Shown here in pieces: positions 22,745 to 26,823 of a stretch of DNA of 64,000 nucleotides. Below the pieces are notes generated by a model, which did no database searches, was not told where the DNA came from, and saw nothing but the letters and a program-made list of their open reading frames with translations. The DNA lies in contig CAZQGH010000002.1 in assembly GCA_964592915.1 (NCBI GenBank), positions 6,435 to 70,434 of the forward strand. The letters are read 5' to 3'. The stretch is from Candidatus Woesearchaeota archaeon. Its GTDB lineage: Archaea; Nanobdellota; Nanobdellia; Pacearchaeales; GW2011-AR1. The translations under genes were made by a program, and so were the position numbers. Every line of letters starts with the position of its first letter. The stretch's first letter is position 1.

Positions 22745-23386
22745 ATGGCAAAAAATAAATCAAATGACAAGAAAACAGATAAAAAAATGCAAAAAAAACT
22801 GAGGATTTTAGCAGCAGGAGATATTCATGGAGACAGCAAGTTATCAAAAAGTTTAGCTGAAAAAGCCAAAAAAGAGCATGTTGATTTAGTTATATTAACT
22901 GGAGATATAACTTCTCCAGTGGAATCTAAAAATTTGATAAAGCCATTTAAAGATAAACATCAGAAAGTTTTGTTAATTCCTGGCAACTGGGACAGTTTTG
23001 CTACAGTTGATTTTTTAGCTGAATTATACGGAATGAGAAATATACATGGTTATTCTGTTAAGTATCATGATGTGGGGATATTTGGAGCTGGAGGAGCGTT
23101 AGGTTTTGATACATCTGATAAAGAATTATTCAATACATTGAAAAGAGGAAATTCTGCATTAAAAGGAGTTGAAAAGAAAATTATGGTTACTCATATGCAT
23201 CCTAAAGATTCTAAATCTGAATTTTCAGGAATCGAAGGTTCTGAAGGCATAAAAAAAGCAATTAAAAAATTCAAGCCTGATTTTTTATTGCATGCCCATA
23301 TACATGAAGCTGAAGGATTAGAAGAGCAGATTGGTAAGACAAAAGTCATTAATGTTGGCAAGAAGGGAAAGATTATTGAGATATGA
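22745..23386 (+). CDS. metallophosphoesterase (calcineurin-like)
   Basis: GDIHGD, LTGDIT, PGNWD, HMHP and HAHIHE motifs. Confidence 0.65.
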   Translation: MAKNKSNDKKTDKKMQKKLRILAAGDIHGDSKLSKSLAEKAKKEHVDLVILTGDITSPVESKNLIKPFKDKHQKVLLIPGNWDSFATVDFLAELYGMRNIHGYSVKYHDVGIFGAGGALGFDTSDKELFNTLKRGNSALKGVEKKIMVTHMHPKDSKSEFSGIEGSEGIKKAIKKFKPDFLLHAHIHEAEGLEEQIGKTKVINVGKKGKIIEI

Positions 23387-23969
23387 TTACCAGTGATATG
23401 TTTTTTTTTATGTAAATCATATCTTCTTCAATAAATGGTCTCATTGCCTTTCCTATCCCCTGAACTTGTTCTCTTTGTTTTTTAGTTAGACTTTCTAGTG
23501 TTCTATTAGCCCTATCAGATACATCTATTGTTAAGAAACTTACTGAATGAGGAACTTCAAAAATGTTACTAGCAAATTCATATACTTCACATACAGGAGT
23601 AGGGTCAAAATAAGGATTGCATTTATTTGCCCATCCATATTTAATCATTTTTTCAATAGGTTCTATAACTGCTGAATCAATTTTAGCTCTTCTTTCTTCA
23701 GTCATCTGTTCTTGGAAATAAGGGATAAGTGTCTTTTCAAATCCTCCTCTTTCAAAATAATATCTATGATTATCAACTTTTCCTGCTGAACCTCCTACAA
23801 AACTTATAGTTCCGTTTACTAGCTCTGACAATAAGAATTTTCCAATTGTGGGAAATTCTTTTTTTCCTGAATTCATGGGTGAAACAAGAAAAGTTTCAAA
23901 CAATTCTCTTCTTTGTTTGTATGCTTTGATTTCAGCTTTAAAATTAGTTAGTGGTTTTTGTTTTGACAT
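23373..23969 (-). CDS. hypothetical protein, last gene of a five-gene overlapping operon
   Basis: 198 aa. Overlaps the upstream gene by 26 nt. No recognisable domain. Confidence 0.35.
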   Translation of the reverse strand: MSKQKPLTNFKAEIKAYKQRRELFETFLVSPMNSGKKEFPTIGKFLLSELVNGTISFVGGSAGKVDNHRYYFERGGFEKTLIPYFQEQMTEERRAKIDSAVIEPIEKMIKYGWANKCNPYFDPTPVCEVYEFASNIFEVPHSVSFLTIDVSDRANRTLESLTKKQREQVQGIGKAMRPFIEEDMIYIKKNISLVIISQ

Positions 23970-24522
23970 TTTTTCTTTTCAATTTTTTATCTTTTGGATT
24001 TCCTTTTCTGTCCCTTGGATAATTTTTGCCTAAAATACCGCATCTAACCCATGTTATATTTAAGTCCTCATTGTTTATTTCAGCTAAATAAGTATCGCAA
24101 TCGTAAGTTCTGAAATCTCCGTTTTCAAGCTTTTCTGTTATCAAATCAGTTAGTTTATCTGATTTTAATTCAACATATCTGTTTCCATAATGAACTTCAA
24201 ATAAAATTCCTTCAAAAGGAGATATTTGTTTTAATTTTTGATATTGTTTTGTGCAGGTTTTGCAGGTTCTCAGCATTCTTGCCCATTCTGTTTTATCTCC
24301 TTTTTCCAATTTTTCAAGTTTTTCATCCAAACTTTTTGCAATGTTTGTTCTTCCAGTCCAGAAACCTCCGTTTACAGAGTCAGTTTCTTTTGCTGAATTC
24401 ATCAAATTACCATATGAATCTTCAGAAGGATTTTTCAAATAAGAAACTAACTTATCAATAAACTCTGAATATCTTCTGTTTCTTTTTTCATCTCTTGCTA
24501 AATCTGAAAATGCGTCTGTCAT
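23944..24522 (-). CDS. hypothetical protein (operon gene 4)
   Basis: 192 aa. Its ATGA overlaps the upstream gene. Lys-rich C-terminus. No recognisable domain. Confidence 0.35.
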   Translation of the reverse strand: MTDAFSDLARDEKRNRRYSEFIDKLVSYLKNPSEDSYGNLMNSAKETDSVNGGFWTGRTNIAKSLDEKLEKLEKGDKTEWARMLRTCKTCTKQYQKLKQISPFEGILFEVHYGNRYVELKSDKLTDLITEKLENGDFRTYDCDTYLAEINNEDLNITWVRCGILGKNYPRDRKGNPKDKKLKRKNVKTKTTN

Positions 24523-24965
24523 TTTATAAAATTTAAGTGCAATTGTCCTGATTTATCTGAAATTAAACCTGCTTCAATTAGGTTTTCTTCAGGAAGTGGC
24601 ATTAAGACAACAGTATTTAATGCTGAATTAAAAGGGGAGTTTTGAGACTGGTCAATTAATGATTTTAATATGTAGTCAATGAACTTTACTCTGTCTTCCT
24701 TTCTGATTTCTTTTTCACAGTTTTTTGAGATATTGAGCAAAGTTTCTTCTAATGTTGAAGGTAATGTATAGGATGTTCCATTTGTTGTGAAATGAAACAT
24801 ATATTTCTTGTCTTCTTTTTTATCTGTTATTGCTCCTGTGCCTTCATACCAGGAATATGCAGATTCAATATAACCAGCTACTAATGCCTGTTTTATTATT
24901 TGTTTACTTGCTTTACTTCCCGAAAAGATTCCTTGGTATCTATTTCCTTCTAATTTGCATCTCAT
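24519..24965 (-). CDS. hypothetical protein (operon gene 3)
   Basis: 148 aa. Overlaps neighbours on both sides. Confidence 0.35.
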   Translation of the reverse strand: MRCKLEGNRYQGIFSGSKASKQIIKQALVAGYIESAYSWYEGTGAITDKKEDKKYMFHFTTNGTSYTLPSTLEETLLNISKNCEKEIRKEDRVKFIDYILKSLIDQSQNSPFNSALNTVVLMPLPEENLIEAGLISDKSGQLHLNFIK

Positions 24966-25227
24966 TTTTTTCAGTTTTAAGAGGAATTATTATTTTTGAT
25001 TCCAAACCAGGAATTTCAGCCTGCTTTATGGTATTCATATACTCTAACTTATCCAATACACCCTGAAAAGTGGTTCCACGAGGAAAAAGACCATGGTCTC
25101 CGGGAGTTATCATTGTCACATCCATAGCTTCTTCATAAGTAAGGTATATCCTGCCTAATTTCCTGCATTTTTTCAGGTATGCTTCTGGCAAAACATTGAA
25201 ATATCTTTTATTAGTCATTTTCTTCAT
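24940..25227 (-). CDS. hypothetical small protein (operon gene 2)
   Basis: 95 aa. Overlaps the MTase stop by 17 nt. Confidence 0.3.
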   Translation of the reverse strand: MKKMTNKRYFNVLPEAYLKKCRKLGRIYLTYEEAMDVTMITPGDHGLFPRGTTFQGVLDKLEYMNTIKQAEIPGLESKIIIPLKTEKNEMQIRRK

Positions 25228-25909
25228 TTAATTTTTTTAGCATGAATATGGCATGATGCGGATAAGTAGAATCAGAAACAGGTTTGAGTTCAAATAATCT
25301 GAAAAGATAAAATCTTGCTTTGTTTATGCTGTGAATATAATCTTCAAATAACCTATAATAATTAAATCTTTTAATTCCTTTCCAGTATTCATAATGTTTT
25401 CCCTTAACAAAGTAATTCATTTCATTATATTTTACCATTTTTCTTAAAGGGTGAGGAACTGCAAATACAACCTCGCCATTATCATCTAAAATTCTGTTAA
25501 ATTCTTTTAATACTGGAATAATATTCCTTTTATACATTAAAGAAAATATTGAGATAATTATATTAAATGAATTATTTCTAAAAGTTGTGGATTCCATATC
25601 TGAGATTTTAAATGTTGTTCTTGGATAATTTTTCATTGCAATTTCTATGCATTTATCACGGATATCTATGCCAAAAGTTTTGGCTTTTTTATAATCATAA
25701 CATTCAGAACCCTCTCCGCACCCTGCAAAAAGGATTTTTTTATTTTTTGTTTCACCTAAATTTGTTTTTATCATTTTTCTTATATGCTTATTTTCTTTGT
25801 ATTTAGTTTGCTTTTTTGAAAACTCAGAACATTGTTTGTTGTAGAGTTCTTTTGCTTCTTGCTCATCTTTTCTCTCCATAAATAATAAGGAGTTTGCAAC
25901 TATATACAT
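25211..25909 (-). CDS. class I SAM-dependent methyltransferase (operon gene 1)
   Basis: ILFAGCGEGSE (motif I) with an acidic residue after beta2 (GIDIRD). UbiE/Methyltransf_11-like, not a DNA MTase. Confidence 0.6.
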   Translation of the reverse strand: MYIVANSLLFMERKDEQEAKELYNKQCSEFSKKQTKYKENKHIRKMIKTNLGETKNKKILFAGCGEGSECYDYKKAKTFGIDIRDKCIEIAMKNYPRTTFKISDMESTTFRNNSFNIIISIFSLMYKRNIIPVLKEFNRILDDNGEVVFAVPHPLRKMVKYNEMNYFVKGKHYEYWKGIKRFNYYRLFEDYIHSINKARFYLFRLFELKPVSDSTYPHHAIFMLKKLNEEND

Positions 25910-25983
25910 GTTATTGTCAAAATTTTGTCAATAGTGTTGCATAATATAGAAAAGCTTAAATATTAATGAATTAGTATAAAATT

Positions 25984-26823
25984 ATGTTAGATAGTCAGAC
26001 AATTAAAAAAATAGAGGAATTTGTTTATTCTCAGCCACGTTCAATGCAGGAAATTGCCAAACATATTGGAAAGTCATGGAGAACTATAGACAGATATGTT
26101 AAAGAAATTGAAAAAGAATACGGAACTATTTCTATGAAAACATTCAGAAAAGGAACAAGAGGAGCGTTAAAAGTTGTTTATTGGAGCAGTGTTGAAAAAG
26201 TTTCTAATTCAGTATTTCAGGAAAGACTTGAAGAGGAGATAATGAGATTAAAGAAAAAAGAAGATTTTTCAGCTTTTGAAATTTATCAGCATGTTTCAGA
26301 TAAAAAAAAGAAAGCAACAATTGAAAAAAAATACAGAGAAGATGAAACTAATTTAAGAGAGTTGAAGCAGTATATGGAAAAATCAAAAAAGCAGATATTA
26401 CTGTTTTCTGGAAATTTGTCATGGGTAAATCTGGAAAATAAAGAAATAAGTTTTTTTGATGAATTAGATAAGTTAGTAAAAAGAGGGATTCCAATAAAAA
26501 TTTTAACAAGAGTAGATTTAGCTGGTTTAAAAAACACTGAAAAAGTGTTGTCGCTAAATTTTAAATATGGCAAAGAATTGGTTGAAATCAGGCATTGTGA
26601 ACAACCTTTAAGAGCGATAATTATTGACAAGCAAATAGCAAGGTTAAAAGAAATAAAGGAGCCAACTGGCAAGATACATGAATTAAATAAAAGGCTTTAT
26701 ATATTCTATACTATAAATGATAAAGAGTGGGTTGAATGGCTTTCAAGAATATTTTGGAAGTTGTTTTCAAATAGTATAGATGCAAACAAGAGAATTGAAG
26801 AGCTTAGGAAGTTAAAAAAATAA
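25984..26823 (+). CDS. HTH-domain transcriptional regulator (possibly TrmB-like), divergent from the MTase operon
   Basis: N-terminal wHTH SMQEIAKHIGKSWRTIDRYVKEIE. C-terminal domain unassigned. Confidence 0.4.
   Translation: MLDSQTIKKIEEFVYSQPRSMQEIAKHIGKSWRTIDRYVKEIEKEYGTISMKTFRKGTRGALKVVYWSSVEKVSNSVFQERLEEEIMRLKKKEDFSAFEIYQHVSDKKKKATIEKKYREDETNLRELKQYMEKSKKQILLFSGNLSWVNLENKEISFFDELDKLVKRGIPIKILTRVDLAGLKNTEKVLSLNFKYGKELVEIRHCEQPLRAIIIDKQIARLKEIKEPTGKIHELNKRLYIFYTINDKEWVEWLSRIFWKLFSNSIDANKRIEELRKLKK

Follow-up and report, generated by a model that had tools for sequence, protein, structure and literature searches.

We analyzed a 64-kb stretch (hereafter, the window) of contig CAZQGH010000002.1, from a Candidatus Woesearchaeota archaeon, which carries on its minus strand a cluster of five overlapping genes. 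The first of these (25909..25211) encodes a methyltransferase (MTase) of 232 aa, and is followed by the genes of four proteins that we call P2 (25227..24940, 95 aa; 92 aa if the ATG at 25218 is the start), P3 (24965..24519, 148 aa), P4 (24522..23944, 192 aa), and P5 (23969..23373, 198 aa). In the list of open reading frames (ORFs), the four junctions overlap by 17, 26, 4, and 26 nt, with a shift of frame at each of them. An independent gene call, available for an identical Logan contig, chose the second ATG as the start of P2, which results in the 92-aa protein and in an overlap of 8 nt (ATGACTAA) with the MTase gene. This is the only correction to the tightly overlapping five-gene arrangement described in an earlier note on this DNA; the ORFs and their overlaps are otherwise confirmed. 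The 4-nt ATGA overlap and the 8-nt ATGACTAA overlap are classic coupled junctions. The two neighbors mentioned in the same note are also present. On the plus strand, a gene for a helix-turn-helix (HTH) regulator of 279 aa (25984..26823) is divergent from the cluster, with a gap of 74 bp between its ORF and that of the MTase. At the other end, a convergent gene for a metallophosphoesterase of 213 aa (22745..23386, plus strand; Pfam Metallophos, 56 bits) overlaps the 3' end of P5 by 14 nt. The divergent gap contains a conserved element (GCAACACTATTGACAAAATTTTGACAAT, 25939..25914 on the minus strand), shared with two other loci, L003 and L006, which is a putative operator or promoter-proximal site. 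The genes that flank the locus are housekeeping genes (seryl-tRNA synthetase [SerRS], SerA, and topoisomerase).

The five ORFs are not chance occurrences and are genuinely coding. The window has a uniform composition of 30% GC, at which ~8% of random codons are stops, and an open frame of 192 codons would arise by chance with a probability of ~1e-7. For the codon usage we trained a log-odds model on 37 long window genes, whose own score is 0.45 ± 0.09; with it, the five genes scored 0.25–0.45 in the annotated frames and below zero in all five off-frames. The GC content and the GC content at third codon positions (GC3) of the five genes are also host-like, apart from the short P2, in which GC3 is somewhat higher. 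Shine-Dalgarno (SD)-like motifs were found at only five of the 72 genes in the window, and starts are typically preceded by a run of A (AAAAA ATG), a pattern suggesting that this organism initiates translation without SD motifs or on leaderless transcripts. All five starts in the cluster are ATG codons preceded by this genome-typical A-run. Two sequencing runs gave contigs that match the window with 100% identity, and the frame changes are thus not assembly noise. Within the cluster, the minus strand showed no terminator-like hairpin; we also observed no Rfam family in the region, and no paralogs of the five genes within the window. The cluster is a compact unit of five overlapping genes, which are probably co-transcribed.

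Of the five genes, P5 is the one that is conserved, and its predicted helical fold is unmatched in the PDB and BFVD. An exhaustive HMMER scan of 1.84 billion representative sequences yielded relatives of P5 in 93 clusters at an expectation value (E) ≤ 1e-3, and in 42 at ≤ 1e-10, the best match of the family having E 2.8e-23 over residues 12–191. Nearly all of these relatives are stand-alone proteins of 180–200 aa that can be aligned end to end. Two blocks are conserved across the family, PTIxEFILSE(V/L)VNGTIxYxGG and GIGKAMRxYIxxDLxYI, and the positions P40, E49, N52, M176, R177, and D183 are invariant or nearly so; the P5 of the window lacks the terminal Y-x-W that most members have. None of the 41 members in the family alignment has a Pfam match above the curated cut-off, two of them having a single stray match each (E about 0.004–0.005). 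The AlphaFold2 model of P5, built with the family alignment, is mostly helical and has a mean predicted local distance difference test score (pLDDT) of 92.2 and a predicted template modeling score (pTM) of 0.88. A Foldseek search with this model gave no match: the best E values were 1.5 in the PDB and 0.25 in BFVD, with template modeling (TM) scores below 0.3. No relatives were found in viral contigs when these were scanned with the P5 alignment. We identified P5 homologs on 13 genome loci, using for this search a 19-sequence subset of the 41-sequence alignment, and on nine further contigs; they belong to Woesearchaeota, Pacearchaeota, Aenigmatarchaeota, and Nanohaloarchaeota, and the family is apparently restricted to DPANN archaea as far as these searches reach. 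Separately, two giant multi-glycosyltransferases, P0070 (1329 aa) and P0098 (1606 aa), showed four weak repeated matches each to residues 60–130 of P5 (E 1e-6 and 9e-4, respectively), which may correspond to a repeated helical module or to a compositional artifact.

The gene order around P5 is a different matter. Besides the window, DNA is available for 21 P5 loci, and neither tblastn nor phmmer detected a relative of the MTase, P2, P3, or P4 in any of them. In the neighborhood check proposed in the earlier note, the five-gene order is thus seen in 0 of 21 loci, and the HTH regulator has orthologs in front of the P5 homolog in L003 and L006. The metallophosphoesterase has an ortholog with 48% identity in L031 (2429–3082), at 0.9 kb from the P5 homolog, and another with 58–59% identity in L005 (1538–2155), at 5.8 kb from the P5 homolog. 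A possible further case is a Metallophos gene that lies 0.36 kb from the P5 homolog on a JGI contig. The metallophosphoesterase is a recurrent neighbor of P5 and probably part of an ancestral neighborhood. We also noted that L005 and the window have four other genes in common, at 42%–73% identity, indicating residual synteny.

The regulator and the intergenic element are the other parts of the locus that recur. Residues 3–52 of the HTH protein have sub-threshold matches to HTH_38, HTH_11, and the HTH of Csa3/CasR, and the layout appears to be that of an N-terminal winged HTH followed by a C-terminal domain with a faint phospholipase D (PLD)-like signal, in the style of TrmB. The ortholog in L006 gives a weak full-length PLDc_2 match in its C-terminal half (E 0.027). 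TrmB-type archaeal regulators combine a winged HTH with a PLD-like effector domain and have autoregulated divergent promoters. The protein resembles them in its N-terminal HTH signal, its length of about 280 aa, its divergent orientation with respect to the presumed target, and the repeat element in between. It differs from them, however, in that it has no Pfam match to TrmB or Regulator_TrmB, and all of its HTH matches, including the winged HTH signal, are sub-threshold. Orthologs of the HTH protein are divergent from P5 homologs in L003 (50% identity, E 1e-88) and in L006 (46% identity, E 1e-81), both from Woesearchaeota. On the far side of the regulator lie NrdR, ribonucleotide reductase, and RLI in L003 and L006, and topoisomerase (TopA) in the window. 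As a side observation, the large subunit of ribonucleotide reductase in L003 (1001–4561), which adjoins NrdR and the HTH ortholog, is split by an intein with a LAGLIDADG endonuclease.

In the window, the intergenic element is made up of CAACACTAT and, after it, a tandem repeat of TTGACAA that has a period of 11 nt; it ends 4 nt before the ATG of the MTase. Equivalent elements are found at the same position and in the same orientation in L003 (ACAACACCATGTAAAGATTTTTGTAAG) and in L006 (ACAACACTATGTAATAAATTATGTAAG). The motif common to the three loci is CAACACYAT plus a tandem TG(T/AC)AA repeat. Chance alone predicts 0.64 occurrences of the 9-mer CAACACYAT in 64 kb; the tandem repeat of TTGACAA, in its exact form, is present at no other place in the window. 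What follows the element differs from locus to locus. In L003 the P5 homolog starts about 36 nt further on; in L006 there is an ORF for a 49-aa zinc-ribbon protein, which abuts the P5 homolog; in the window, the MTase ATG comes after 4 nt and is followed by P2, P3, P4, and only then P5.

Gene 1, as read from its motifs and profile matches, is a generic class I S-adenosylmethionine (SAM)-dependent MTase of the small-molecule, RNA, or protein type. It exceeds the Pfam gathering scores of Methyltransf_31, Methyltransf_11, and Methyltransf_25 (47.9, 44.9, and 43.2 bits versus cut-offs of 27, 21.2, and 27), and these are its only matches of this kind. In the translation, motif I reads ILFAGCGEG and is followed by FGIDI(R)D, with an acidic residue ending beta-2. 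The (D/N/S)PP(Y/F/W) motif of DNA MTases is absent from the 232-aa protein, and no Pfam family of the N6_Mtase or MethyltransfD12 type was reported, in agreement with the earlier view of this protein as a small-molecule or RNA-type enzyme and not a DNA MTase. Although the Rossmann-fold SAM-binding motifs are those of the Methyltransf_11/25/31 type (UbiE/BioC/RlmA-like), the protein lacks close relatives and remains below every NCBIfam equivalog cut-off (41 versus 185 bits for BioC, 41 versus 303 for RlmA, and far below for UbiE), so that no substrate can be assigned to it. Its closest relatives of solved structure are RlmA (1p91) and uncharacterized Bacillus MTases, at E about 1e-6. It is a singleton in 90% identity clustering, the scan of metagenome contigs returned no close relative, and phage MTases share only about 25% identity with it. 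A resemblance to the methylation-associated defense system (MADS) comes from the MTase domain, which aligns to residues 249–416 of the PADLOC mad2 model (E 2.8e-13), but the match covers only the generic MTase domain of this 492-aa model, and the protein is devoid of DNA-MTase motifs. No other Mad component was detected by PADLOC among P2–P5, the HTH protein, and the metallophosphoesterase.

Searches with P2–P5 stayed below threshold in Pfam, NCBIfam, PADLOC, and PHROGs and gave nothing among PDB sequences; the earlier statement that the four downstream proteins have no assignable known family therefore stands. All of them are soluble, mostly basic (P2 is both soluble and basic), and singletons in the 90% identity clustering. 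P3 and P4 matched only themselves among 5.8 billion clustered proteins. No matches were found for P2 in viral contigs (IMG/VR), phage records, and plasmid records; for P3 in viral contigs and phage records; or for P4 in metagenome contigs, viral contigs, and phage records. We considered whether P2, P3, and P4 could be divergent paralogs of P5, and discarded this on the basis of hhalign probabilities, all below 1%; a Trm112-like activator was discarded for P2, which has a single Cys and no profile match. Residues 66–107 of P3 show a sub-threshold match to p55_CTD (PF21705; 22.6 bits versus a cut-off of 27, E 1.6e-4), a family on which we found no literature, and the same stretch weakly matches phrog_34862. 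P4 has a K-rich C-terminal tail, and its AlphaFold2 model, predicted from the single sequence, is unusable (pLDDT 43).

For P4 we also observed a similarity to the regulator NrdR. Residues 65–156 align to residues 10–98 of the NrdR of L006 (6207–6656) with 28% identity over 95 aa (pairwise E 6e-5), and the Smith-Waterman score is 7 standard deviations above that of 2000 shuffles. The aligned region comprises the second zinc knuckle (CxxC) and the first half of the ATP-cone. Among the ORFs of the window, the L006 NrdR matches only P4; there is no NrdR in the 64 kb, and NrdR adjoins the orthologous HTH gene in both L003 and L006. P4 differs from NrdR, however, in having a single aligned CxxC, without the first one, and HYGN where NrdR has KKDG, and in lacking the nucleotide-binding motif KRDG. 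No signal was seen between P4 and the NrdR of L003, the Pfam families ATP-cone and Zn_ribbon_NrdR were not reported for P4, and a three-sequence NrdR profile scored P4 at only 10 bits. The similarity to NrdR is a weak lead drawn from the alignment and does not amount to membership in the family.

We suggest, with a probability of roughly 0.6, that the locus contains a conserved module of regulator, operator, and P5, which often has an orthologous metallophosphoesterase close by, and that in this genome an MTase and three orphan genes stand between the operator and P5, all in one polycistronic operon. The operon is probably lineage-specific, built onto a conserved DPANN gene, and not a conserved undescribed system. 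Given their placement between operator and P5, the first four genes would be expressed and regulated together with P5. We infer that these four were gained here rather than lost elsewhere, since they have no detected relatives and the content of the slot between operator and P5 differs among the three genomes (nothing in L003, the zinc-ribbon ORF in L006, the MTase and three orphans in the window). The divergent TrmB-like HTH protein would bind the tandem TTGACAA/TGTAA repeats, in a promoter/operator region shared between its own gene and the operon, and would control a single leader-poor mRNA, on which the five genes would be co-transcribed and translationally coupled; we consider this regulatory part rather likely. 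The substrate methylated by the MTase would be a small molecule, RNA, or protein; P2–P4 might be lineage-specific accessories of this enzyme or simply young genes. The idea that they are accessory subunits of the MTase is put forward much more weakly than the regulatory part.

Several points speak against the lineage-specific reading. Only two loci have an orthologous regulator, and both are distant (46%–50% identity for the HTH protein, 30%–38% for P5); with just these two comparators, the four genes may instead have been lost in the lineages of L003 and L006. The overlaps at every junction, along with the host-like codon usage, argue for an old and selected arrangement, which would fit a genuine functional unit in this lineage. 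The searches of large protein databases covered P3, P4, and P5, and the word-indexed search needs shared 5-mers and can miss relatives below about 30% identity. Fast-evolving homologs of P2–P4 could thus escape it, the nearest relatives being distant.

The earlier note had seen in the five genes an obligate unit and a candidate for an undescribed system, for example one of RNA or metabolite modification; the MTase would then work with all four downstream proteins. In favor of this are the overlap at every junction, the lack of a visible internal terminator, the host-like codon usage and start contexts of all five genes, and the intact look of the MTase motifs; P5 relatives beside radical SAM enzymes in four loci could hint at a SAM-linked role. 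We nonetheless judge it improbable, because the five genes do not co-occur. Among 5.8 billion proteins P3 and P4 find no relatives, the other four genes are never near P5 relatives in the 21 loci with DNA, and in L003 the orthologous regulator and operator sit before P5 alone; moreover, the radical SAM enzymes near P5 relatives come from subfamilies unrelated to one another. An obligate five-gene system is thus not supported. The same note held that assignment of the four proteins to unrelated housekeeping families, together with a gene order not conserved elsewhere, would speak against such a system; the order is indeed not conserved, and P2–P5 remain without assignment to a known family. A different arrangement, in which the promoter-proximal slot captures lineage-specific genes and the five proteins form a SAM-dependent modification pathway centered on P5, is likewise unlikely in our estimation. 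The proximity of P5 to radical SAM enzymes and to the orthologous metallophosphoesterase is consistent with a P5-centered pathway and, if this arrangement were true, the part made of regulator, operator, and P5 would itself be new biology.

Quite unlikely, too, is that the block from MTase to P4 represents mobile-element cargo, a virus remnant, or a defense or toxin module that landed beside P5. Orphan genes without homologs are a typical feature of the DPANN mobilome, which is poorly sampled, the interval between operator and P5 varies between genomes, and PADLOC models match both the MTase domain (mad2, E 2.8e-13) and the phosphoesterase (PDC-S10). These PADLOC matches are generic, however, with no other Mad component, and the orphan genes have no IMG/VR, phage, or plasmid matches. 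Neither an integrase nor a transposase was found, and there are no direct or inverted repeats at the flanks, no adjacent tRNA, and no att site. GC, GC3, and codon scores are host-like, and by composition the block does not stand out as an island; housekeeping genes (SerRS, SerA, topoisomerase) flank it, and the phosphoesterase ortholog is kept near P5 in other DPANN genomes. The uncharacterized defense module that had been proposed for this cluster is not supported. Least credible of all is the possibility that frameshifts have broken one or two longer genes into these small ORFs, be it in a pseudogene or through misassembly. It would account for the frame changes at each junction and for the two overlaps of 26 nt, but the sequence was assembled independently from two runs with 100% identity, stand-alone proteins of ~190 aa can be aligned with P5 over their whole length, and no longer homolog was found for P3 or P4, nor a long single ORF of another genome that covers two or more of these genes. 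Each ORF, furthermore, starts with an ATG in the usual A-rich context, and the ATGA and ATGACTAA junctions are of the coupled type.

A portable and conserved five-gene system would matter, but the evidence says that this cluster is not one. Under the favored reading of a conserved module with genes inserted before P5, the locus would show how orphan genes are placed before an older gene and come to share its regulatory unit. The conserved operator-like repeat offers a testable pair of regulator and site in an uncultured lineage. P5 represents an uncharacterized family without a Pfam model, with a confident and unmatched predicted fold and with recurrent neighbors (phosphoesterase, HTH, radical SAM). 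Because of this unmatched fold and these recurrent neighbors, it is a reasonable target for structural and functional work in minimal symbionts.

Other neighbors of P5 homologs were also recorded. In four independent loci, a radical SAM enzyme is encoded no more than two genes away from the P5 homolog (L004, 1565–2872; L008, 1684–2619; L009, 5122–6651; L022, 3308–4988). The subfamilies are unrelated: In L009 it is a tetraether synthase, Tes (685 bits), in L004 a SPASM maturase-like protein, and in L022 two small MoaA-like proteins. The Woesearchaeota contig L008 contains three tandem genes of the P5 family (2–1532), and L010 has a partial copy beside a full one. In one subclade, the P5 homolog is located just upstream of the gene for a giant coiled-coil protein (L007, 2255–5140; L011, 1194–6294; L012, 3–6638; L015, 3–9499), which ranges from >1490 to 2493 aa and has a C-terminal match to DUF5752. 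Directly upstream of the P5 homolog in L007, L012, and L015, and also in L009, is a member of a ~366-aa family without Pfam match, in place of which L011 has a histidine phosphatase; FtsX/ABC transporter genes are found further upstream in L007 and L009. Two of these contigs, both short, carry unexpected labels, L009 that of a Methanosarcinales metagenome-assembled genome (MAG) and L012 that of a Campylobacterales MAG. Both have the same module of c2 and P5 homolog as the contigs of Aenigmatarchaeota and Nanohaloarchaea, and L012 has the giant protein as well; they are probably mis-binned DPANN contigs.

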